A stretch of 63,270 nt of DNA, counting the filler, from Collodictyon triciliatum (lineage: Eukaryota), in the NCBI GenBank assembly GCA_043381765.1. It is 5 parts of 5 records of this genome, joined end to end, with 100 filler letters (N's around TTAATTAATTAA, not from the genome) between each part and the next. Parts side by side here need not be neighbours in the genome. Positions count along the whole stretch, not along the records: positions 19,002 to 45,134 come from JBHJMP010000624.1; 4 more parts are not named here. One strand, written 5' to 3'. Under the pieces are notes generated by a model, which saw nothing but the letters and a program-made list of their open reading frames with translations, did no database searches and was not told the DNA's origin. Positions 18,729 to 48,476 of this stretch are shown here, in pieces (the stretch's first letter is position 1; each line of letters opens with the position of its first letter). Made by a program: the position numbers and the translations under genes.

Positions 18729-18901
18729 GTTTGCTGGTTTATGGCTCTCTCGTGTCTATCGGTTATTTATTATTTTGCTGTGTTTATTTGTTTGTTTATT
18801 TGTTTTTTTTTTATTCTTTTGCTGTGTTTTTTTGTTTGTTTTTTGTTTGTTTTTTGTTTGTTTTTTGTTTGTTTTTTGTTTGTTTTTTGTTTGTTTTTTT
18901 G

Positions 18902-19001
18902 NNNNNNNNNNNNNNNNNNNNNNNNNNNNNNNNNNNNNNNNNNNNTTAATTAATTAANNNNNNNNNNNNNNNNNNNNNNNNNNNNNNNNNNNNNNNNNNN
19001 N
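18902..19001. other. Artificial contig-joining linker
   Basis: N44-TTAATTAATTAA-N44. Confidence 0.95.
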
Positions 19002-19131
19002 ACATCCACACATCCACACATCCACACATCCACACATCCACACATCCACACATCCACACATCCACACATCCACACATCCACACATCCACACATCCACACA
19101 CATCCACACACATCCACACATCCACACATCC
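19002..19131. repeat. (ACATCCAC)n 8-mer microsatellite, intronic
   Basis: Directly visible. Confidence 0.9.
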
Positions 19132-19155
19132 ACCCACCCAAACCGGCCGACTCAG

Positions 19156-20044
19156 CCCCACTTACTCGCCAGAGACTGGGCCAAGGGCTGTGCGCGCGGC
19201 CGCCATCGCAGACAATGCACCAGCGGTGGCTGCACGAGATGGCGGGCCGCGGCCTTTGCCCCTCGCCAGACCGCAGCATCGGACACAGCCGCAAGATCCT
19301 TGTGCTCGACCTCGATGAGACGCTTGTCCACTCCACGGTGCGGCCCCACCGCCCCTGCTACGCCGCCGTCGATGTCTTCACAGACACCGGCTCCTGCACC
19401 CTCGCCCTCTACACGCGGCCCCACCTGCCCGAGTTTCTTGAAAAGGTATGGCTGCCCCGGACTCTTCGGTCGGCCCCTCTGACCCCTCCCTCTGCCTGCT
19501 CAGGTTGCCCAGTGGTACCATGTCTACATCTTCACGGCGGGCATGCGCGGCTATGCTGACCCCATCATCAATCGCATCGACTCCACCCGCACTGTTTTTG
19601 CGCGGAGGTTCTACAGAGAGGTATCCCACCCCGTGTGTCTTTTTGCCCGCACATGCACACGCACGCACCATGGCCGACTTGCATTCGCGTAGGACTGCAC
19701 GCGGATGGACGCCTGCTTCGTGAAGGACCTGCGCAAGGTGCACCACCACATGGGCAGCGTAATCCTCGTGGACAACTCGGACGTGTCCTTCCAGCTCCAG
19801 CCCGGTGAGTCCCCTCCACAGAGCCCCGCCCGCATGTGCGCCACTGTCTCGATACAGCGCCATCTCACGGCCGTGTCTCTGGGCAGATAACGGCGTGCCC
19901 ATCCCCACGTGGCTCGGCGACGACCCGCACGACACCGCCCTGCTCTCGCTCCTGCCGCTGCTCGACGCCCTGAGGCACACCCGCGACGTCCGCTCGCTCC
20001 TGTCTCTGCGGCCAAGCGCCACCCCCCGCATCACGCACGTCTGA
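19156..20044 (+). CDS. CTDNEP1: CTD nuclear envelope phosphatase (Dullard/Nem1 family, FCP/SCP HAD phosphatase), 5' truncated
   Basis: (S)[95 protein letters not shown]; introns at ~19446, 19621 and 19805; stop TGA at 20042-20044. Confidence 0.88.
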
Positions 20045-20045
20045 C

Positions 20046-20117
20046 GCCTCTTTGCCCGCCTCTTTGCCCGCCTCTTTGCCCGCCTCTTTGCCCGCCTCTT
20101 TGCCCGCCTCTTTGCCC
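20046..20117. repeat. 12-bp tandem repeat (GCCTCTTTGCCC) x~6 between CTDNEP1 and QPCT
   Basis: Directly visible. Confidence 0.9.
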
Positions 20118-20176
20118 AGACACACACCCGCACACCCGCACACCCGGCCAATAAACCCACGATAGAACCGCCCAGG

Positions 20177-22688
<2,512 letters not shown>

Positions 22689-22870
22689 CGCGTGTCCCGG
22701 CGCCACCCGCCCTGGCCCCCTGAGCAGCCGCCATGCGCCCATTAAACCCTACATCTTCTCTTCAAAGTCTCGGGCTGTGCGGTGCGTGTCTCTCCGGTCG
22801 CCTCTTTACCGTTTTTATCTTCATCGCCTGGGGCCGTGCTTGAATGCCGACCCACGCTGGCTGGTGCTCG

Positions 22871-25800
22871 CTACTCGTGGAAGGCAAAGACGTCTTCGGC
22901 AAAGAGGTCCTGGTATCCCTTTCCGGCCTTTGCAGGGCGACCCTTTGATGGAGGGACGGAAAGTACAAATTAGGCGAGGCCATGGGAGCCGCTGCACGAG
23001 GCGCGCGGCAGAGAGGAGGCTGCGGACGCAAGCAAGCGGCTAGCTCTGCATGCCAACCATGGCCGATACCGCTGGAAGCATTTGGTATCACAGGATGCCG
23101 TGCCTGTCCACACAGATGCTCATACCCTTTGCGAGGCTCCTCCGCGTCGTGGTGCCCCGCCCCGCCTGGCAATCTTGATGGACTGGGAGCATTCCTCCTC
23201 ATCCTGTCGGCTCATCTTCTCCAACGCCTGTCGGGAGGTCGGGTTAGGCACATGACATTTCTCCCAGGCAGGTCTTTAAGTGGGCAGCAAACCAGAAAGA
23301 CAGGCCGCATTGCGCTGCCCTTCAAGGGTGCAGATTTCAACTCACCAAGTAGGACGAGGTCCTCCCGACCTTGGCTCGATGCATCTCGTCTGGTTGATTC
23401 TGCGAGACACAAGTGCGAATTGGCGTCATTAATCTTGGTGTCATTTGCGTCTTGGGCTCGACACTCGGCCTCTTCCCATGCGTTAATCAGGGCACAGCCA
23501 CTCAAACACAAGGAGGGACTCGATGGAGTGGCAGAGTCAAAGCCTTATTGAAACAAGCGATGGCCCACAACACAGGAACTTGACATCTAGGAATGAAGTT
23601 GAACCTTTTCCGGGGTTTTGAATCCTGGACTGCCGGCACCTTCCTTGCCTCTCACACACGCTCGCTTTCCGGGACTTTGAAACTGGCTCATGGGTTGTGC
23701 TTGGCCCGCAGGGATTTCGTCCAACTGAGAATGTAGGATTTTTTTATATTCTTCTTGAGAAGGGCTTCAGCCTTGGACATATTTTTTTCCAAGCAAGAGC
23801 ATTACCTTGAAAAAAAAAAGGAAGGTAAGTGTGGGAACAAAGTATTTACCTCCCCGTCAGAACTTATATCTGCAGCTTGTATGGCACTGCCAGGTCGTTG
23901 GCTTGTTTGGGACACCACTTGAGTATGCACCATCATCTCCACTCTGGAAGGGCTCTCGAGGGTCTGGGACTGGGCAACAGATGATTGTCCGTATGATTGG
24001 ATAAAGAGATGATAGCCAATGCATGATATTTGGACGAAACAGGTTTCCCTGAGGGAATGAAGCTTACTCTCGCCTGGGATGGAACTATCCTTGCTGCGGG
24101 GCTCTTTTCGACGGACCTATCACGCTCCTTTTCAACCCTATCCCTTTCTTTATCCCTTTCCAATTTCTCTCTTTCCAATTTCTCCTTGATTAGCGTCTCC
24201 TTTTCTGCTTTTTCAACTTGTCGTTCCTTCTCCAGCTTCTCCTTCTCCAGCCTTTCCTTTTCAGCCCTTTCTCTATCTATCCGTTCCCATTCTTTTTCCC
24301 TCTGCTTTCCCATAAGCTCCTTCTCCAGGGCACGCTCTCGCTCTCTGTCCCGCTCCTTCTCTATCGCGTCCTATTTAATATAACATAAGGATATGTGTGG
24401 AAGCCGATTCTCCAAACAGTACATTCCAGCTAACCTTTTCTGCTTTGGTCTTGTCCAATTCAACCTGAGTTTTCATAATATTTGAAACACATTATAATGA
24501 ATAATATACATAATTATCGGTTTAAGAAAATTTAAAGGTATACTTTTATTGCGCGCCAATGAAATACATATTGATTTGCTTCTTTTTTTTCTTTGTTTTT
24601 TTCTTTTTCAATTATATGAAATTAATTTATTTATTTTTTTTTAAAAAAAAGGGCAACCAACCTGGAACTTTTCTAAAGACTTCACTGCCACCAAAAGTTC
24701 CTCCTTTGTTGATTCAAAAATTTTTTTCGTATATTTAGTATAGCATACCTTGAAGTCGAGGATAATTTAAGCCATTTATCAGGAAAAAAGGGATGGGGTA
24801 CCTTATTTAAACCCAAGTCAGTCCTTAACTTGGAGATGTCTCGCTCAAGTGAGTGCTTCTGCAACGAAAGCTCTGTCATCTTCTCTGCAAGCTCTTGTAT
24901 ATTTCGGTCTTTGACCTTTAATTCCTAATGAGATGACAAGTAAGCGAGCGTCTATAATTAATTATTTTTTTTTTTATAAAGAATTCTAAATTTTAAGAGA
25001 GCGAAAAGTATCGAATAAAGTTAAAATAGAATCATCTAGTCACTCCGATTATCATTGAAATAAAGCGTTCAAAATTTCTGTTCTTCTGTATCCTAATACC
25101 TCCCTTTGTTTGTCCATATCAGACATGATATTCTCTTGTAGGTCTTTAAGTTTCCTGGTCAGGATTGCATTCTCTTCACAAAGAGCTTCAATTTTCTTGT
25201 TGGAAGAGAGCTCCATTTCCTGATACCCAACGCGGAGACTCTCCCTCTCCGTTTCTGCCATTGCTCTGAAATTCTGCAGTATATTTGTTACAGCGATTCT
25301 AAAGAAATACGATGAAATGCACTACGAAGTTGAATTTGGTGGATTAGTTAGAGTAATCAAGATACCTCAATTTCTGTTGACAGCTTCTGTATTTCTTCCT
25401 TTGACAATTGCATCGCAGCGGCCTGGTTTTCCAATTCTAAAGTCCTCGTTTGGAGAGCTGCAGAGGCTTGGTTGTAACTTTCTCTCAATGAGGTAAATCT
25501 GGCTTCAATTGATTCATTCTTTTCCTTCATGGCCGAGTGTTCCTCCAAGAGTCTTTCATACTCACTCCTTTGCCTCTTTTCTTGGGATAGCTTGCTCCCA
25601 ATTTGACACTGGAATTCCCCGAGAGAATTTGAAAGCTTCAAAAGCCTCTCTTGATCGGATAGATGGAGCTGATTGGCGTCTTCCAGTTGTTTCTGTAGTT
25701 TATCAACATCTGCTTCTAGATTTGAAATTTTAACTCTACTATCATGCAAATCTTTACGAATGGATTCATGCTCATCATTTGATACAGATAGTTGTGCCTC

Positions 25801-28176
25801 GAGCTCCTTGGTTCTATTTTTAAAGAAAAAAAAGAAAAAGAAAGAAAGTTAAATCTAATGATATAGGAATTATTAAAAAAAATTTAAAAGAGGAAAAGAA
25901 AAAGGAGATGAGCAGGAGAGTTAGCGAGAGTTTTATCCACTTTCAGCCTTATTAAGCACTACTGGTAAGATACTAATACCTATCTTTGGCTTCAGACGCA
26001 TTCGATTTCTCCAGGTCCAGGGATCTCTCCAGGGATGCTGTTACTTCGTTGAGTTGGTGAATCACAATCTCCAAGCTTTTTTTGTATTCTTTTTCATTTC
26101 TAAGCTGACTTCCAAGGTCTTCAATATCGTGATTCTAAACAGTCAAGATGTTATTTCTGATAAGTAGTTTGCACAAACGTAGCTTCTTGTTTCGAGAAAG
26201 TACAAGTTTAAACTATTTTTGAAATGAACAAATTGTATGGTTCTTTGTCTAAAAGAGGGCTAGAAACCTTTTGAATCAGTATATTTTCATATGTCTCATG
26301 TTTCTTCTGATTTTCTTCATTATCTGTTCGCAAGCGACTCTCCATATCTCTCACGCATGATTCCATTTCTAGCCTGTAACTAACTAATTTAGTCTCTTCA
26401 AGTTTCCTTTTTTCAACTTCTATCTGTAGGTCGACACAGTCTTGCTCCAGCTTGGATGCATAATTTTTGCAGTCTCCTATAAATACATAGCACATAAAAA
26501 ATAATGTTATAGATTTTATATTGTGATTTAAATTTTTATTCTTTATTCGATTCAAAGATGTCAATTTATATTCTATGATTTTCAGACAAAGGAAATATTT
26601 GACTTATTTCTGAAGTTAGAGCCTCAATGTTTTTTTCGTATCGCCTGCATTCTTTCTCCCTGGCTTCGTGCCTCTTTTCAAAATCCTTGACTATTATTAG
26701 ATCTAATATTTTACTTTTTTTTTTAGTTGCATGATTCTTGGTCTTAGAGAAGAATTATTGAGCAGGAGCGTACTTTTTTCCAGCTGCATTTGAAGGGACT
26801 CAATTTGTCCGTATAGTTCTCTAGTCTTTTCTTCCGATTCTTTCATATTTGCTACGGCTTGTTCGCCGACTCTTTTGAAATTTTGCAAATCAACCTCCCC
26901 TGAAAATCATGTATGTTTAGTCATTTGATATGACAGAACAGTCCTGAAGATAAAGACATGTATAGCTTACCTAAGACCATCTTCTTTTGGCACGAGGAGG
27001 CCAGTTCCAAAATCATTTCTTGCCTGTGGCGATGTTTTTAATCGAAGGGTATAGTCAACGCAATTTCATCATGTGATATTATAGAAAATAATAGTAAATT
27101 GTAGGAAGGTTTCACTATAAACAATTATATGTAACCTCGCACGGGCCGTCTGAATGTCAAACTGGATTTGCTGCATCTTTTTTGTCTGTTCTTCAAGTCT
27201 TATTTCAAGTTTCATGTTGTCACTTTTTAGTTCTCTGATTACTTGCTCTTGAATCTCCACAGTCGTTTGGTATTTTTCTATTTTTCCTCTCTGCGATAGG
27301 CGTTGCTTAGTAGAGTCGTTGAATTTGGTCACACACACTTGGGAATTAAAAATAATTAAAATTACCATGACTTCTAGTTCGTTCTTTTTTACACTTTCTC
27401 CCATCAATATCCGTTCTTGAAATTAATTTAGTGATTACTCTTGTTGCTCATTCAATTACACCATAATCAATTGATTACTTTTTCCACAGAATTAATTATG
27501 TTGCTTGAATGTTGTGTTCGTTATCGCATTAGAGGACACGTTATTACCAGCTGTTTTCATGAGCGTGTTGTACCGGCCTGATGGGAATTCTCCCTGATTG
27601 CTTTGTTGGTTCACACTCTGCATCTGGACTAACCCGACCTCTTGGCGCGAAACCATTAGGGTCATTGGCGCCCTCGGTTTCAGCATGTTGGACAGCATCT
27701 ATGACGGGAACATTAAAATCTGAATACAACTTCTTTTTTTTTCAAACTCCTAGATGTTTGGAACTCTTTTGATTGGGTGGGAATAAGCGCTTGGTGGTAT
27801 TCGACTATTGACATAATTAATCTACCCCATAGCAGAACTTGTGCTAGTAACAGCACTCGGCATGCATGACAAAAATTGTGGGAGCGGTACATCCCGGCGC
27901 TATATACTGCGACATGGAGAATAGTCTCCAGAGACCAGGTGCGCATTCAAGGAATCCGGGCAATCCTTTCGGTGAAAATCCACCAGTACCGAGGACTTTT
28001 CGATTTACTGTGGTGGACGTAGGACAATTTCCTGGTATTATTGGGTTTGGAGTTCGCCAACGAAACAACAGAGCATTGTCATTTCCTCCATTCTTTGAAG
28101 CCGTCTTTGTGTGTATTGACTCAAATAATATTAACTAAATGCTATGTCGTGTAACCATACGCTCGCACACAATCAT
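22871..28176 (-). CDS. Long coiled-coil protein, candidate synaptonemal complex transverse filament (SYCP1/ZYP1-like); 5' end uncertain
   Basis: Exons at 27698-27548, 27415-27366, 27290-27136, 27023-26971 and from 26899 give YNTLMKTAERILMGESVKKNELEVMRGKIEKYQTTVEIQEQVIRELKSDNMKLEIRLEE...; a long heptad region follows, then a basic S/T-P tail ending GYQDLFAEDVFAFHE* (TAG at 22873-22871). Confidence 0.75.
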
Positions 28177-28410: not shown

Positions 28411-29660
28411 TTAATCACTCCAATCGAAACGCCGCGGTTGCGGTCGTGTCCGGACATTCGGAGTTGCTGCAAACACAGCCGACTGTGGGTGATTCATTAC
28501 ACTGGGCTGCGCCATAAGGCTGAAATGGAAACGATGAGACCAAGGGGGATGCGTTACTATTGATGACGAAATATATCCATCCCAAAAAGAAAAGAAAAAG
28601 AAAAAGAAAAAGAAAAAGAAAAAGAAAAAGAAAAAGAAAAAGAAAAAGAAAAAGAAAAAGAAAAAGAAAAAGAAAAAGAAAAGAAAAAGAAAAGAAAAAA
28701 GAAAGATGAAAGATGAAAGAAGAAAAAAAAACAAAAAACAAAAAACAAAAAACAAAAAACAAAAAACAAAAAAAATGCGGTCATCATCTCCCACCAATCT
28801 ATTCACCAAATACATACATGAACAATAGAAATGAGAATAACTATTGCTCATAGACTTTTCAGCAGGAGGAATGAGAAGTGTGTGGTCTTACCTTTGTTGA
28901 GGGGGTTCTCGTCTTACAATGACGGAATCTGAATTCTCAGAAGGACGACCTGAATATTGCATAAAACACAGATTAGATGATAAAATGATGATAGATAGCA
29001 GTCTTGATTCATGAAAAAAAGTCATAAAAATGTCAAATATGAATAAGCAAATTCAGTCCCCAGTTCTACATAGAGCGGTATACCATGAGTAGAGTATACA
29101 GGATTTGGTACTTGTATCATACGTGCAGTTGTTCTGAATAAGCAATTGTGAGATTCATCACAGGAGCCAAAGCATCAAACTCTGCTCTTAGAGGAAGAAT
29201 GGAAAAGCAAGCAAACCTGTGACGATTGATTTCAAGGGGGATGTTATGCGTTTGGGTTGCAGTGGGTTGTCTTCGCCGCTGGATGCGCCTTTGCAAAGTG
29301 ACTGCGCGCCAATGACGCGCATATTTCCGCACACGATTCATTAAGGACTATGATTGTTTGAGTCGAGGCCATCGATTGCACACATATTTGTGGGTGAATT
29401 GTCGATAATTAGCAACGGAGAAGACATGAGGAGCAACAATGCACCCACTACAAATGAAATATCATATTAAACTGATTTGTTAGATTTGATTGCATTAAAT
29501 AAGTTGGATGTGTAGCCAGCTTACCCGGTATTTGTTGGTGTGCAATGTCATGATTTCCTGCTCTCTTCTCTCCTGAACATGAACTGCAGTCTATATGGTT
29601 TCCATGAATTGCATCAGACAGTAAAACAATACAGCAATAGATAAGCATAATATGTTATTG

Positions 29661-32700: not shown

Positions 32701-34921
32701 TTGTGAGTAAAAAGTCTTAAGCTAGCACAATTATGCGCATCATGTGTGGAATAAACCTTTTTTGTAAACGAAGGTCCGAAAAATGTTTTGCCTCACTTTT
32801 GATTCCCTGTAATTTATTTCAAATTAATGATTATTTGCAATCAAAAAAAAAAAAGAAGAGATATTTGAGTCTTAAATTGCCAAAGAAAATAATACAAAAA
32901 TATCTTTGATGTAAAATAAATGGACACTTTTTTGACCACTGAACGTCTGTGATATTTCGCTAGCTCGCAGAATGCCCTCCTGATTATATATTTTGTTCGA
33001 TATCCTGCAGCCCATATCATTTTGGCCTAAAGTGAGATAAAATACAGATATTATCAACTCAAGAATAGAAAAATGCACCAATGTTCAAAGATATTTTCCA
33101 TCAGCCCAGAAATACCTGATTCCTTAGCTCTATTTTATTTTCCATTAAAGCCCTCCAATGATGAAAAGTGTATCTCTGCCACTAGTTAAAAAAATTGAAT
33201 ACAGTAATTAGATATATATAAAATAAAAAAATTCGGACTTTCTCGGGCAAATGAAATTTCGTAAAGGTTACTCACAAACAGACGAGCGTTTCGAAGTTTG
33301 CATAATTCGTATAAAGTCACAAGCATTCTTTTTTGAGTGCAGAAAGATTTCCATTCACGAAAGAGTCTTGTCTATCATTAAAAAAAAAATCAATTTTTAC
33401 CACACAATCATACTACTTTTTTTTCTCCCACATCATCAAATACCTTCACCATCATACAGCAGAATCTTTCAGCTGTTTGGTTTTGTTTCTTTTTCTTTTT
33501 TTTGAGACTGACATCTAAATTTGTATGATTATATTAAGGAAATTATGAAAATACAAACGAGGTGTGTATTTTTAATATTATATTTTCAAAAAAAGAAATA
33601 GTATCTGAAAAAAATCAAACATAGTCGCAATGATGCAATTGAATATTTCTGCAATTGTTCAGTCCGTTTCGAGTCTGCCAAGTGTTCCAGTTCACGCATG
33701 TGCCTCTGATATTGCATGAAGGTTATCCATTTCTCCAAAAACTTTTTTAGAATACTCCCATACAGGTGTTGATATGCGAGCACTGCAATGTGTGGAGTTG
33801 GAAAGATTATTGATTTAAATTTTGATTCATCAAAGCTTCCTTTGATGAACCTATACCACAGGGGAGTATGTATATATTAGCGTGGTTTTGAATAAACATT
33901 TATTCTATGACCAACTGAATTTAAAAGTAGAATACGAGTCCCTACGTTTCTTTTCTTCTTGGTCTAGCTGAAGCTTTATGTACGAAACCCACATCACCAT
34001 TGAGCTATGAAGAAGGTAGTGCCGTCGAAACTTGTCAGCGCAAGCTGTTTTTGTCCTCGTTGTTTTTGTTGCCGTTGTATAATTTCTCCATGCCTTTAAA
34101 ATTCTCTTGAAAAGCTTGATTTTTCTTTTAGAGATGTACTGTCGAAGGATATGTGAAAGTTTGCGAGATTGTTTAGCTCGGTTCATCCACTCCCGAAAGT
34201 AGTTTCCTGCAGTCAATTCCCGGTGGTGATAATCAGCGGCCTAGATGATTATGAAAGTCGGAAATTGAAGCTGCCAACAGGCACACAAAGATATACATCA
34301 TCTGTTTGGTTATGCGTCGAAAGAGAGAGAGAAAAGAAAGGAAAGAGCGGAACAAAAATTCAGGTGGTTGTGAGCATGAATCCTACTTTTTTGAGCTGCT
34401 TTTTGGTCCTGCGCACTTCGGTGTAGTGCAACCAAGCCTGAAGGCAGATGCGCCCATTCTTGATTACATCTGGAGATGCAGCAATGCTTTTAATCAAAGG
34501 CTTACTGCTTTGCCAAACAATTTAAAATGCGCTTCGCATGATGAGCAGCGCACGGCTTGGCCGGACACGATATGCCTGCAGAGCAGGGAAGGATGCTTTG
34601 CGATAGACCGGCCAACTCACAGTAGCGCACAGCATGAAGCAGAGACGTGCGCTTCTCAGCCTGCAACCAAAGGTATCTCCTCCACGTGTCCCAGACGGAT
34701 CGTCGGCGCATTGCGCGGTGGTGGCACTCGGCCGTGATTTCCCGCACCCACTCTGCATCGACAAGAGCCTCGCCCGCAACTCCCGCCTGCTTCGGCGCAT
34801 GTGCGCGTGATCCGTCCGACCCGCCCGCTGCTCTCTTTGCAGCCGTCTTTGCGGCCGGCCGCGGAATCCGTGAGGGAGCGCGGACGTCGCTCGAGTGCGC
34901 CGCGCTGTTGTTGCCGGACAT
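28411..34921 (-). CDS. SFI1: Sfi1-family centrin-binding repeat protein
   Basis: Many Sfi1 repeats of the form A..(F/Y/H)....L....F..W (e.g. ADKFRRHYLLHSSMVMW, AYQHLYGSILKKFLEKW, AERFCCMMVKTRLFREW, AVRHWAHRLYKSAL); C-terminal RPQPRR; more than 15 GT-AG introns. Confidence 0.85.
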
Positions 34922-35148
34922 TGCGGTCCGCGGAGAGGCTGCGGTTTCTGCTTGCGCGGTCTGCCCAGTTACTTTATGCCGCGTGTGTGGCGCTTGGGAA
35001 TGCCCGGTTGTGCGGGGGATGTACACGGCGCCGGTTTGTTGCGGGGGGAGTCGGGCATGTGCTTCTGTGTGCCCACACAGCGCAAGGATCCACACGCCGT
35101 GGAGAAAAGGGAGGGAGAGAACGAGGGAGAGAAGGCTGTGCGGTGCCG

Positions 35149-38100
35149 CTATTCCCCAAGGCTGACCCGCTGTCGTTTGCACGAGGGCGCCATACGCGCA
35201 TCCCACAAAGCAACCAGACCGGGCGCGCTGTCCTTGATGCCCTCTGTCTCCTGGATGTGCTGGCGCAGAATGTTGCTGGCCTTGCTCATCTGCATCGGCG
35301 GGGGCGACGCTTGGTTGAGCAGAAGGTCAAAGACAAACTCCCACAAGTCCGGCTGCTTCGGCCGTCTGAATGAAACACCAGGGTGGCGTGTTGCGTTAGC
35401 TTCATCTTTGGCGAAAGAACTGTAGGTGATTCCTCATATCCTCAGTATGCCTACCGTGATTCCACAGGGGCCGGCCTCAAACCACTTCTGGTTCGCTCCA
35501 CACAAAGAGCAGTTCCGTACAGCATCTCATGAACCACGCCGGCAGCCTGGAACAAATCAACCTGCCCAAATCATAGTTCAATACCCATGGGCGAGGAAGG
35601 TGAGGGCACGGTAATATTAAATACCGAGCAGTACACGTTTCTTTCTGGTGTTTGTTCGTCTCAGTGGGTGGGGATATGGGATGGGAGCATTGAAAGTAAA
35701 GCTCTCTTGATAGTGACCATAGCAATAACAAACAGAAACAAATCAAAAAAAAATGCACGAAAACACAAGAACAGATTCTGAAGGCAGGAACGGAATATAA
35801 ACAGAACCATGCAGGTGTATCCCAACAGCACAGTTACCTGGTGACCGTACTTCATTCCTGGGGAAATATCCAACCACTGTTCGCTCAGGAGGTTGTTGGG
35901 CCACTCCGATGAATGTGCGGAAAAAACGGCATCCATATCAATGGCTCGGTCGAAATTCACAAGTTGGAGACCCTGAACAGAAGTGAAAATATTAGAGAAT
36001 CACAGTAAGGGAATAACCAACACACAGTTGCCCATCACTTGCATCATACAGTAATGATGGTCTTTTTTTTTCTTCTCTTTCTTTTTTGGAAGGAAAGTTA
36101 CGGATTTTCCTTTGAAAAGATAATGCAATCGAGACAGCTGAAAAGAGTGACCTGTCGTGGAACTGTAATTCAAGGGAGAGGAGGAAACGGCAGATTCAAT
36201 TACCTTCATATCAAGAGCTCGGTTGGTCACGGGGAACCTGGGCTTCGGACTAGAGGGAACACCATTTATTATTTTTCAGATGATATCGGGGCGAGGGGAT
36301 TTTTTTTTTTTGATAGACAGTATCTCACCGCAGTTCTGATGATATCGATTCAGTACGATGATGGATTGTGATCAATAGGTTTGCTGCTGAAATGTTTCCA
36401 TGCACAATGCGAGCCTGTATGAGAGAGCCCAAAAGATCCATAATTTGGGCAGTATACAATACCACAACCTCCTCTGGAATCTCTTGATTTCTTGTCTTGG
36501 ATATTTCCAATAGGTTCTAGCATGGTGATAAAGCCAGACGTAGTAGAGTAAGATATGGAAGAGATAATGGATGCTTCAAACATTCTTTTGGATAATTTTG
36601 AAATAAAGTTTGGCTGACATTGGTTAGCAAAAAATTAAATAAAAATTCTTTGTCTGGACAAATATAAAAATTTTACTTGAAGTGATTGTGCATTGTTATG
36701 TTGTGTAACTGCCAAGTATATGTTGTCCTTCTTATGAATCGTAATGGGTGTTGGAAAGAACCGTCTCTGGTTTTGTTGTATTACAATCGTTGAGAAGCTA
36801 AAGATATCTGGTCTTTGAGTGATAAAGCTGATATACAGACATGTTTTAAAACGAACCTTTCCAGTTGATATGCGATCGCGAAACAGTTTACACACATAAA
36901 ATTCTGACAAAACTGCAGCATCTCCGACCTGTGAATGATTGGATTGGTTATTACAGATATCTCTTTTGGGTGTTTCTGCTATTTTTCTGGTCGAGATGCA
37001 TTTTTTTTATTTTTGATCCATTTGATGATGGCTTAAATTTGGACAATGGGTTAATTACTTTGATTTTAGTGATGAAATTCGGATTGATATCTTCTTGAAG
37101 CTCAGCAGTGTCATACTCTATTTGACTCTTTGATAAAACACGTTTCTCGACCACAAAGTACGACACTTCATCTAAATAAAAAAAATTTAAAAATTCTTAT
37201 TAGCTCAATCGACACAATCTAACTGCACTTTGTAGCCTATCATTAGATCACTAGCTGCTTCGAAGAGAAGGAGCGTCCAACACGAAGAAAAAATATTGGT
37301 TAAGTACTACCTATGGTTATTTCATGACATGGCTCCCACTCGATTTGGGGGTGGGTATTGTGGGTATTTGAGGCCAATGGTCCCGGCGTCAGGTGTTTCT
37401 CAACCTGCAAACTGTTGAGGATTCTTTCTATGATTTCATCGGGAATTCCTGAAGCAGTCATTTGCAGTACGGGTGGGACTGAGAGAGTAGAGCGAAGCGG
37501 GACGGTGTTGGTTGGAGCTTTCAGAGGAACAGCTGGGCGTTTTTCGGATTCCAATTGTAAGTTGCCTTTGGCTGGCTGCGGTGCAGAGTCCTTGGGCGAA
37601 GTCTGTTGCAGATTCTCATGGTCTTCCATTACAGAGAATTTGCTGCTCTGTGGAGGGCATATCAAAGAAACTGGCTTCAAATGTGACGTATTGAATACAC
37701 TCTCTGTTGTGTTGGCCTCAGAATCTTGGGTCATTACGGAATCGTTTATGGCGCCATTGAACCCAATCATTACATTGTCGATGGCAAAGCGCGTGTGTGC
37801 GGTGGGTGAATCCTCCACACCAGAAACAATGGACTGGTTGAAACTGCCATGTAGTGGGTGATACGATATGATTGGCTTCTCGACAAAAGCAGGCTTCTTT
37901 GATATTGTAGACAAATTGCGAGAAGAGTCGTTCAGATGGTTGCTCGCTAGAGGGCCAGGTCGTGAAGAGTCTTTGGACGTGCCTTTCGCACTGCTACGAT
38001 TGCAAGAAGGTCCTTCGTCCTGTTCAACGGCATCTGACTCAGTTTTGCAGGACTCTGTTGTTTTGCATTTACGTGTGGGTATAGCGTCGGGTAGCCCGGG

Positions 38101-45676: not shown

Positions 45677-48476
45677 TTAGATGTTCTTGACACTAACGCG
45701 ATCTCGGAGGAACAGTGAGATGTAGAGAAGAGCGTTGAAGACGAAAAAGATAAGAATTAAGATCGACACAGACTCTCCATAGTCATATTCATCATAGCTG
45801 TAATCCGCCAATACATCCTGTTTGTGTTGAGAGAAGTTTGTAGTTGCCCAGATTATGTCATGGATGCAGGTAGAATAGATAGTTTTAAAGCGCGGAGCAT
45901 GTAAAAGAGCACTCACATTTCCTGTCTGATAGCCGCATCCTCTGGGGTCAGCATCCTCGAAGCGGTAACCCTAATCGTATGTGCCCGGTAAACAGAGTAT
46001 GAAAAGCCAAATAGAATAGAAGAAAGATAAAAAGAGAGTATTCCTTTGTGCTATTATTTGCCGCTGTTTCAGTGGTGGCCATGGACGGTCGGGAGGTGAG
46101 CTTACGTCGAATTCGTTATTGGCGAGTCCTTGCATTCCCCACCTCATGAAGGATATATCAGTTATCCATTTCACCGATTTTGGAATTTCCTGATGGTAAG
46201 AGAGGTGGGTAAGCAAATCACAAATCTCCTGTTGAAATTTAAATTTTCCAGTGATTTGCAAGTAGACCAGAAGATTCTTACACTGCGCTTGACAAGATAA
46301 CTGGCGAAGAGCATGAAAATGACCCCAAATAGAGGGGCCACAACAGCTCCAACAGATGGGTTGGGTACAATAGAGCCAACGAAAAGACTGAGGGACTATA
46401 AGAGGAAGTAAACGTTCAATAGAATTCATGTAGATTATTCAGTATGTGAGCTGAGATGGAATAAATACCTGAGCAGTGTTGAACAAGATGTAGACCATCA
46501 GAAGGAATTTGGCAAAATGGTCTCCGCCATCTCTCAGGTTTGTCATATAATAGTAAATAACTGAGAAGATAAGGGGGAGGACAAGAAGAGGAAGTCTGTC
46601 CGTAAGCATGCGAGAGAAGTAGTATGAATTCAGTGAGTAAGCATTTCCACGCCTCTCATGAATTACTAGATCGCGCTCCAAAGGAAACACTTGGACGAGT
46701 TGGAAAATGGAAGAGAAAACTATTGCTGCTACTGCATAGAAGAGGGCGCTCATTCGTGAGCGAATAGCAGAGGTTGACTCGGACAAGTCGAAAAAGACAA
46801 GACCTCCGAGTAAGCCCTATGCCAACAACGTTTCAATATGAGAATATGGCTTTATGCTTCTTTTTTTTTTTGCACAGACAAAATTGCTTACCAATTTTTT
46901 AAATTGTTATTATTGTTATTAAATATAGAGTGTGGCGCTGACCATAAATAGCGTAGAAATAACCCGAGCCTCAAATTCAATAGAGCTTCTCTTCAAGGTA
47001 ACTATGTTTCTCCACATGAGTAGCTTTGTCTGCTCAAATCCTGATAATCTATTGGTAAAAATGAGACGATGGGTAGGGATATTTTAACCCATTTGACATC
47101 AAAATATGCAGTTTAAACAATGAGGATTCAGTGCAGACTAGGATATGTGTATATATAAAAGAAGCAAATATGGTTTCTTGTAATTTCAACCGCCCTCGAA
47201 AAGGTAACCGAAAAAGCAAGAACCTGTCCAGCTCCTCCGATTGCTTGGCGACATCAAGTGGTGCGAATTGGCTGGGGGTGTTAATTTTAGCTTCCATTTC
47301 TCGGCCAAGGTCAGAGTCGATGTAATTCTGGTTAATTATTTTAATTCAATGAAAATGTAGATAAAAGTAAAAATAAAAATAAAAAGGGGCAAAATTGTAG
47401 GAGAATGGCTATGTACCCTAAAGTGTATATAAATGGATAATAGATGTAAAATAGGAAGAGTAAGAACTTGGCAGTATCCACGGATGTCTCCATTCTTCAG
47501 AGTTCCATTATATCCTATAATGTCGGCACCTGGAGTCGTGACATCGAGGATGTAGTCGGCTGGGTTCATCTTTGTTGGGCACTTGAAGCTGATGAATTAT
47601 TGTTTGAGATATTCGGATCTGAAGTCTATAAATATACCAGGAGAAAAGGAAAGGTTCAAAATACCCTATGGAGGCGAAATACTCCGTGCAACGAGAAACT
47701 GGGCCGAAATAGAAGGTGTTTCCCTCGTACAACAAGAATAGAGTGTCCATTTGGAAGAAGATATCAGGCCTGATTTTGGATTGTACAGAATCAATTGGTG
47801 TTTTAAAAACGAGCTTTCAATCAAAGAACTTCCGTTTGTGATTAGGACATTAATAAATCTGAAAGGATTGGATGTACCTTGGTTGGTGAATGGAAGCGAT
47901 GATAGTGCGGCCTTCACGAGCTAGTTTTTTGAGAATGCTGATAACATTGTAGGAAGAGTTACTGTCCAAACCAGTGGTGGGCTCATCCAAAAAGATAAGT
48001 CCGGGTCTAGTTACAAGCTCAATACCGATGCTAACTCTTCTCTTCTCTCCGCCAGATACACCTCGGAAAAAGTATCCTCCAATAAGAGTCTCGCGGGCCT
48101 AAGAGAAAATAAGACAGAAAAAGCATTATACCAAGGAATAGCTTAGATTATATTGGCGTAGTATTAGAGGTGGTCTTAATCTGAAGCACAGCATACTTTG
48201 GAGAGGCCCAGTTCGTCGATGATCTCGTCTGCGATCTGCTCTTTCTCGATTTGGCTTATAGACTATAACAATAAAGATTGTATTAGCCAGACAGGCAAAA
48301 GTACACAGCCTGGGAGGGGTGGAAGATATTGTGACCATGGAATAAGGATCTAATGAAGATATTTGAAGATTTCCCGTTTTCTTTTCCCTTCTTTTGTTTT
48401 GTTTGAAAATGTACTGAAAAATGTAAATAAACGAAATAGATTAAAAAGTGTGCGTGCATGTGCGTGCGTGCGTGCG

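Follow-up and report, generated by a model that had tools for sequence, protein, structure and literature searches.

A gene encoding a long coiled-coil protein lies on the minus strand of a 63,270-nucleotide stretch of Collodictyon triciliatum DNA (assembly GCA_043381765.1; hereafter the window, meaning the whole stretch analysed), within the part that comes from JBHJMP010000624.1. Its coding span runs from 27698 to 22871 and is predicted to yield, after splicing, a protein of about 892 residues (892 codons in 19 exons of a provisional gene model, model A), which is probably a synaptonemal-complex transverse-filament protein related to animal SYCP1 and plant ZYP1. In a six-frame view the locus appears as short open pieces in shifting frames, with AT-rich spacers between them. 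A naive dynamic-programming gene model read through these AT-rich introns and was replaced by one in which introns were placed by hand at GT...AG boundaries, with the frame open to the stop at 22871. All 18 introns of model A (64-197 nt) begin with GT and end with AG, and no internal stop occurs across the 19 exons, which are as follows:

27698-27548 (-): exon 1
27415-27366 (-): exon 2, residues 51-67 (ERILMGESVKKNELEVM), as spliced in model A
27290-27136 (-): exon 3
27023-26971 (-): exon 4
26899-26774 (-): exon 5
26690-26604 (-): exon 6
26476-26268 (-): exon 7
26134-25980 (-): exon 8
25813-25366 (-): exon 9
25273-25100 (-): exon 10
24924-24802 (-): exon 11
24703-24662 (-): exon 12
24464-24435 (-): exon 13
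24370-24068 (-): exon 14
23969-23850 (-): exon 15
23724-23605 (-): exon 16
23471-23346 (-): exon 17
23260-23126 (-): exon 18, doubtful; picked by eye in a GC-rich stretch, with no ZYP1 counterpart
22942-22871 (-): exon 19, GRPAKAGKGYQDLFAEDVFAFHE and the stop codon; the acidic-aromatic C-terminal end

The initial annotation of this locus had placed the gene at 22871-28176 and had described four small exons splicing in phase to an N-terminal peptide. That peptide, SGRYNTLMKTAERILMG...GEVDLQNFKRV, was reproduced exactly, although five exons rather than four are needed to build it; its exon pieces lie in different frames, so that no single open reading frame (ORF) shows the motif, as had been reported. 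Coding sequence occupies 22871-27698 of the annotated range; because it starts at 27698, the stretch 27699-28176 is left with no recognised coding part. Neither the opposite strand nor the flank at 27713-28138 gave a Pfam family. Short contigs identical to parts of the gene were present in four DNA runs from three studies (freshwater or lake metagenomes), none of which bridges an intron or shows a relative; no RNA run was found for this DNA.

Base composition differs along the gene. The GC fraction is 0.20-0.36 in introns I1-I13 as against 0.36-0.52 in exons E1-E13, whereas from exon 14 onward exons and introns are both 49-61% GC and composition ceases to mark the introns. The junctions of the N-terminal region and core are therefore reasonable, and those of the tail (E15-E18) are provisional; the uncertain junctions are E9/E10 (alternative 25382|25298), E11/E12 (alternative acceptor 24748) and E15 to E18. 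Exon 17 also joins exon 19 in phase without exon 18, in which case the protein would have 847 residues and the tail would measure 156, near the 159 of ZYP1A. The shift in composition within the gene (22871-24370) is sharp, the 5' two thirds carrying introns of 20-36% GC.

The N-terminal motif is assembled from the end of exon 1, the whole of exon 2 and the beginning of exon 3; its parts in exons 1 and 3 are:

27548..27581 (-): exon 1 part, S40-A50 and the first base of E51, located by a score of 31 to a ZYP1A 17-mer
27180..27290 (-): exon 3 part, residues 68-104, located by phmmer and the printed ZYP1A text

Long alignments were counted by hand from printed sequences, ungapped and with BLOSUM62, except where machine scoring is indicated; scoring by script covered four short ZYP1 motifs. 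The full Arabidopsis thaliana ZYP1A and ZYP1B sequences are printed in PMC9957857, and the human SYCP1 sequence was used as printed for PDB 6F5X. The former bears out the N-terminal segment of ZYP1A and the C-terminal end of ZYP1 as given in the initial annotation, and the PDB alignments do the same for human SYCP1 residues 114-168. Residues S40-K104 align without gaps to ZYP1A S38-K102, with 18 of 65 positions identical and a BLOSUM62 sum of 87, of which the first 17 columns (31) were scored by script and the other 48 (56) by hand. Residues E51-E101 likewise align without gaps to positions 17-67 of the SYCP1 chain 6f5x (human 114-164), in the register set by HMMER itself, with 15 of 51 positions identical and a hand sum of 67; the ungapped register to both families that had been claimed thus holds.

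When the same 65 residues were compared with 1000 random 871-residue sequences of core composition, the best ungapped local score averaged 41.3 (sd 5.2) and reached 64 at most; the score was 38 against the core of the protein itself and 42 against that core reversed, and it never exceeded 63 in 500 heptad-phase-preserving shuffles. The sums of 87 and 67 lie above every one of these values, a Gumbel fit to the null placing 87 near 1e-5 by extrapolation, and by these nulls the N-terminal similarity to SYCP1 and ZYP1 is more than chance. The ZYP1A 17-mer (residues 38-54) found its best place at residue 40 of model A, with a score of 31 against 23 at the second-best place. None of the 126,440 six-frame positions of the window reached 31, because the match spans the junction of exons 1 and 2. 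The human stretch preceding residue 114, which would contain YSKLYKEA according to the initial annotation, appeared in no analysis output; a nine-letter piece of it had no match in a full-text literature search.

From the register and the published numbering, L46 (27563-27561) would be the counterpart of human SYCP1 L109 and of ZYP1A L44. In PMC10588951, L109 is described as essential for head-to-head assembly and synapsis (in mouse), and as the only one of two SYCP1 tip residues to be conserved in A. thaliana; the position of the human V105 residue is occupied by Arg in the new protein and by Ser in ZYP1A. Further along, exon 3 was aligned by phmmer to positions 36-71 of the SYCP1 chains 6f5x and 6f62, again without gaps, and contains a block, N92-x-K-L-x-I-R-x-x-E, common to human SYCP1 (NEKVSLKLEE) and ZYP1A (NAKLRVRKKE). 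Over the 51 shared columns, hand counts gave 15 identities between the new protein and human SYCP1, 12 between the new protein and ZYP1A and 11 between human SYCP1 and ZYP1A. The protein is therefore only slightly closer to SYCP1 and ZYP1A than they are to each other, and the annotated description of it as bridging the two families is overstated, the bridge being modest.

The motif depends on the inclusion of exon 2, for which an alternative was considered. An HMMER alignment to SYCP1 ran into intron 2 and so suggested a second gene model (model B), in which exon 2 is left out and splicing to an acceptor at 27339/27338 makes the exon begin at 27337. Model B loses the ZYP1A 17-mer match, its best score being 23 elsewhere in the protein, and needs a gap against human SYCP1, whereas inclusion of exon 2 lets the motif align ungapped and contributes +23 to the ZYP1A and +7 to the human hand sum; exon 2 was kept for this reason, and model B is a possible alternative splice form rather than the main model. 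No stop interrupts the frame through intron 2 (27291-27365, minus strand), and the GC content of its 3' 47 nt is like that of an exon. Translated, the intron gives KFNDSTKQRLSQ, which HMMER aligned to human SYCP1 KWKVSTEAELRQ (residues ~117-129) with a gain of about 3 bits; this may reflect an alternative acceptor or a chance resemblance over 16 residues. This alignment indicates that short local similarity is cheap in sequence of this composition and can arise by chance. A branch-site motif considered as support for intron 2 was inconsistent across introns and was dropped.

Overall, the protein is built like ZYP1: a head of 39 residues, a proline-free core of 652 and a tail of 201, as compared with 33, 679 and 159 in ZYP1A (hand count), and a total of 892 residues as compared with 871 and 856 in the ZYP1 proteins. 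The core and two of the tail motifs, the third being the last exon, are placed as follows:

24101..27581 (-): proline-free, heptad-rich core, residues 40-691, from the end of exon 1 to exon 14, pI 5.4
23611..23631 (-): exon 16, tail motif SPGFKTP, the counterpart by rank of SPFVKAKETP in the ZYP1A tail
23415..23450 (-): exon 17, tail motif TQMTPRLMTPIR, corresponding to TRLTPKLMTPTI of ZYP1B

A home-made heptad score, which is not a calibrated coiled-coil predictor, was positive to about residue 616. The tail has a pI of 9.7, seven S/T-P sites and 18 prolines, and its last 15 residues are acidic (pI 4.2). A long coiled-coil stretch followed by a basic S/T-P-rich tail had been noticed from the start, and these values bear that description out.

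The tail motifs were compared with A. thaliana ZYP1A and ZYP1B only. The motif TQMTPRLMTPIR carries TPRLMTP where ZYP1B has TPKLMTP; it scored 39, the next best place in the protein scoring 13, and 39 was reached only at its own position among 126,470 six-frame positions (shuffled-motif P = 0.0008). The C-terminal end DLFAEDVFAFHE, followed by the stop at 22871, resembles the end shared by ZYP1A and ZYP1B, and the pattern DLF[AS]E..[FYW]AF[DEH] has one match in the 126,536 six-frame residues of the window, directly before that stop. The ZYP1-like acidic-aromatic tail of the initial annotation thus stands as a combined pattern unique in the six-frame window; taken singly, the halves of the C-terminal motif are weak, with 10 and 11 six-frame positions scoring as high or higher. 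The pattern SP.F.K..TP also has a single match in the 126,536 residues, a count that carries low weight, having been obtained with a pattern written after both sequences had been seen. The three motifs lie on the same strand in three frames, in the ZYP1 order and ending at the stop, with spacings of 19 and 88 residues as against 74 and 25 in ZYP1 (hand count). The last 22 residues of Arabidopsis ZYP1B autoactivate in the yeast two-hybrid system (PMC9825157).

The tail would have to be read otherwise if model A fused a coiled-coil gene of AT-rich composition, with its end near 23936, to a separate GC-rich gene downstream of it. From exon 14 the GC content rises abruptly, introns I16-I18 equal the exons in GC richness, the exon 14 ORF continues unspliced to a stop at 23936, and the E16 donor (GTTCAA) and the E17 and E19 acceptors (AAG) are weak, all of which would suit such a fusion. 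The downstream pieces, however, hold the ZYP1 tail motifs in ZYP1 order and on the same strand, the donor at the end of exon 14 (GTAAGC) is strong, and no Pfam family was found there on either strand; we regard a fusion as very improbable.

Database searches, for which single exons or unspliced ORFs served as queries, gave little beyond what any coiled coil would return. Together with several properties of the alignments and of the gene model, they weigh against a transverse-filament identity. Of eleven exon or ORF pieces searched against Pfam at E <=10, none matched SCP-1, the only families listed being generic coiled coils below threshold; weak matches are removed by the HMMER filters. In the PDB, three N-terminal queries did retrieve the SYCP1 N-terminal coiled-coil chains 6f5x and 6f62, as two of five, two of four and two of four matches, but with E-values of only 1.1/6.3, 0.076/0.099 and 0.15/0.25, and the unrelated coiled coil of RasGRP1 (4l9u) scored as well as SYCP1. 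Exons 5, 9, 10, 11 and 14 matched lamin, GCN4, tropomyosin, TNIP1 and similar PDB entries, SYCP1 being absent; for exons 10, 11 and 14, near the C-terminal end of the core, there were no SYCP1 chains among 2, 14 and 4 matches, respectively. A 66-residue N-terminal piece retrieved only generic coiled-coil clusters from the ESM Atlas, and with exon 3 as query a full HMMER scan found one match among 1.84 billion representatives, P0001, judged spurious. Exon 9 and the N-terminal piece gave no match either in word-index protein searches or in scans of metagenome contigs, and an exon of a neighbouring ABCG gene likewise gave none by word index. Taken alone, the single-exon searches gave no hit beyond generic coiled-coil background, the outcome that the initial annotation had itself named as speaking against its proposal. 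In addition, 56 of the 87 points to ZYP1A and all 67 to human SYCP1 are hand tallies; human SYCP1 is matched by the intron 2 translation to about the same degree as by exon 2; the tail patterns were picked after both sequences had been seen and so carry less weight than the raw counts suggest; and the junctions of model A are predicted from sequence, the tail exons lying in GC-rich DNA in which composition does not mark the introns. The spurious match P0001, a protein of 1068 residues with six near-identical repeats of about 95 residues containing KEIKSDNSELKFNEE, is unrelated to the finding.

These results raise the question of an unrelated long coiled-coil protein (a golgin, or a centrosomal or nuclear-matrix protein) whose likeness to SYCP1 and ZYP1 would be due to composition, heptad periodicity and motifs chosen post hoc. 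The generic background in the searches, the non-significant SYCP1 E-values, the match of an intron translation that rivals that of an exon and the weakness of each C-terminal half motif would all be expected of such a protein. It would leave unexplained the N-terminal scores over 65 and 51 residues, which beat 1000 random and 500 phase-preserving sequences, and the collinearity of three motifs at matching positions (core start, tail and extreme end), each of them unique in about 126,000 six-frame positions; moreover, no domain of another coiled-coil family, such as a motor or GRIP domain, was found in the Pfam scans. We consider this explanation unlikely.

Even if the relationship to ZYP1 and SYCP1 is genuine, the protein need not work as a transverse filament: the gene may be a paralogue that has diverged towards a different function, or a copy that is decaying or not expressed. 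No RNA run carrying the gene was found, no relatives show purifying selection, and the tail motif spacing is unlike that of ZYP1. The frame, on the other hand, is open across 19 exons with no internal stop, and both the critical Leu and the length of the core are retained, so that this alternative seems improbable.

We reasoned that an ungapped N-terminal motif shared with both families, together with the build of the protein and a ZYP1-like tail and end, makes a transverse-filament orthologue the best reading of the locus. Its grounds are a motif at the start of the core, the kept critical Leu, the matching build and the collinear ZYP1 tail motifs. On these sequence features the protein is probably a transverse-filament member of the SYCP1/ZYP1 lineage, closer to plant ZYP1 in its tail, a conclusion to which we assign a probability of roughly 0.78. 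The orthology asserted in the initial annotation is thus supported in part, on motif, build and tail; the single exons lack a Pfam SCP-1 match. Since the SYCP1 C-terminal coiled-coil structures gave no match and SCP-1 was not reached, the protein does not appear to be a strict SYCP1 and is not filed as such.

By analogy with the family, the proline-free core of about 650 residues would form a parallel coiled-coil rod, and head-to-head assembly would take place through residues 40-50 and the N-terminal coiled-coil end that follows them. The tail, whose basic, S/T-P-rich composition is observed, may reside at the chromosome axis and bind DNA or chromatin; more speculatively, the acidic-aromatic C-terminal peptide might dock on a partner at the axis. 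If the protein is a transverse filament, the organism would carry out meiosis with a synaptonemal complex.

The remainder of the window contains exons of other genes. ABCG-type half transporters are represented by exons of two genes, and two further exons were recognised by their Pfam domains:

46439-46816 (-): ABCG-type half transporter exon
11822-12247 (+): ABCG-type half transporter exon
13036-13554 (+): ABCG-type half transporter exon
18954-19559 (+): exon of an NLI-interacting-factor-like phosphatase (NIF, E 5e-9)
60267-60746 (+): exon of a leucine-rich-repeat protein (LRR_8, E 4e-10)

The ABCG exons matched ABC2_membrane (E 8e-18) and ABC2_membrane_7 (E 3e-10 and 3e-5). The nearest ESM Atlas clusters to the exon at 46439-46816 are plant ABCG proteins, with recorded members mostly from Streptophyta; a word-index search with it gave no match. 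The window alternates between blocks of about 33% and 50% GC (e.g. 16000-24000 and 34000-36000), and hexamer and dinucleotide microsatellites are very frequent throughout (e.g. 22200-22420, 28580-28700 and 50000-50800). It contains 1988 N in all, several of the N runs lying inside repeats, and no rRNA, tRNA or Rfam family was found in its 63 kb.

Transverse filaments evolve fast, and protist meiotic gene inventories usually miss them (PMC4647503); such inventories, for instance those of diatoms, list transverse filaments as 'not found' (PMC4647503), and BLAST scores between transverse filaments have been reported to be no better than those for randomised proteins (PMC4132317). In open-access text we found no paper on a protist protein of this kind, nor on the C-terminal DLF...AF motif as a conserved one. 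The N-terminal link between the two families is itself already published: Billmyre et al. (2023; PMC10588951) reported that A. thaliana ZYP1 contains a recognisable version of the N-terminal motif of SYCP1, a motif spanning two kingdoms. The link that the initial annotation drew between two families 'treated as unalignable' is therefore not new. As a third distant sequence that combines the N-terminal motif with the tail motifs of ZYP1, the new protein would support the common descent of SYCP1 and ZYP1 proposed in PMC10588951, and would mark L46, the N-x-K-L/V block, TP[KR]LMTP and the C-terminal DLF...AF peptide as residues under long-term constraint. From it one would also predict that a freshwater eukaryote undergoes meiosis with a synaptonemal complex. 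A bolder proposal takes the host to lie outside animals and land plants and its protein to combine the head-to-head motif of SYCP1 and ZYP1 with tail motifs of the ZYP1 type. A single transverse-filament gene, with both of its ends defined, would then have been present in a very early eukaryote, and the C-terminal peptide would be an ancient axis-docking motif. We hold this proposal to be possible but doubtful; if it is true, transverse filaments could be found in protist genomes by means of a profile seeded with the new sequence.

Among known transverse filaments, yeast Zip1, Drosophila C(3)G and C. elegans SYP-1 resemble the new protein in presumed role and in their head, rod and tail build (PMC4132317), whereas the N-terminal motif is not found in them according to PMC10588951. 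To animal SYCP1 (Pfam SCP-1, PF05483; PDB 6F5X and 6F62), residues 51-101 align ungapped with 15 of 51 identities, as compared with 12 to ZYP1A; a Leu is kept at the L109 position, and the two proteins share a head, a rod and a basic tail. The new protein differs from SYCP1 in that single exons give no Pfam SCP-1 match, that the SYCP1 C-terminal coiled-coil structures are not matched and that human V105 is replaced by Arg. From Arabidopsis ZYP1 the new protein is set apart by an identity outside the motifs that is too low for a search match, by a C-terminal end shorter by seven residues (GSLNPYA), by the different spacing of the tail motifs and by its origin, the gene not being from a land plant; ZYP1 has already been reported in green and streptophyte algae (PMC9957857), in which an orthologue of this kind would be expected. 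The likeness to Arabidopsis ZYP1A and ZYP1B takes several forms: the motif starts at S40 as compared with S38 and continues ungapped over 65 residues with 18 identities, the proline-free core measures 652 residues as compared with 679 in ZYP1A (34-712, hand count), the tail is basic and S/T-P-rich, and TP[KR]LMTP is followed by DLF[AS]E...[YF]AF[DH] just before the stop, an acidic-aromatic C-terminal end that is a feature of ZYP1, present in both ZYP1A and ZYP1B.

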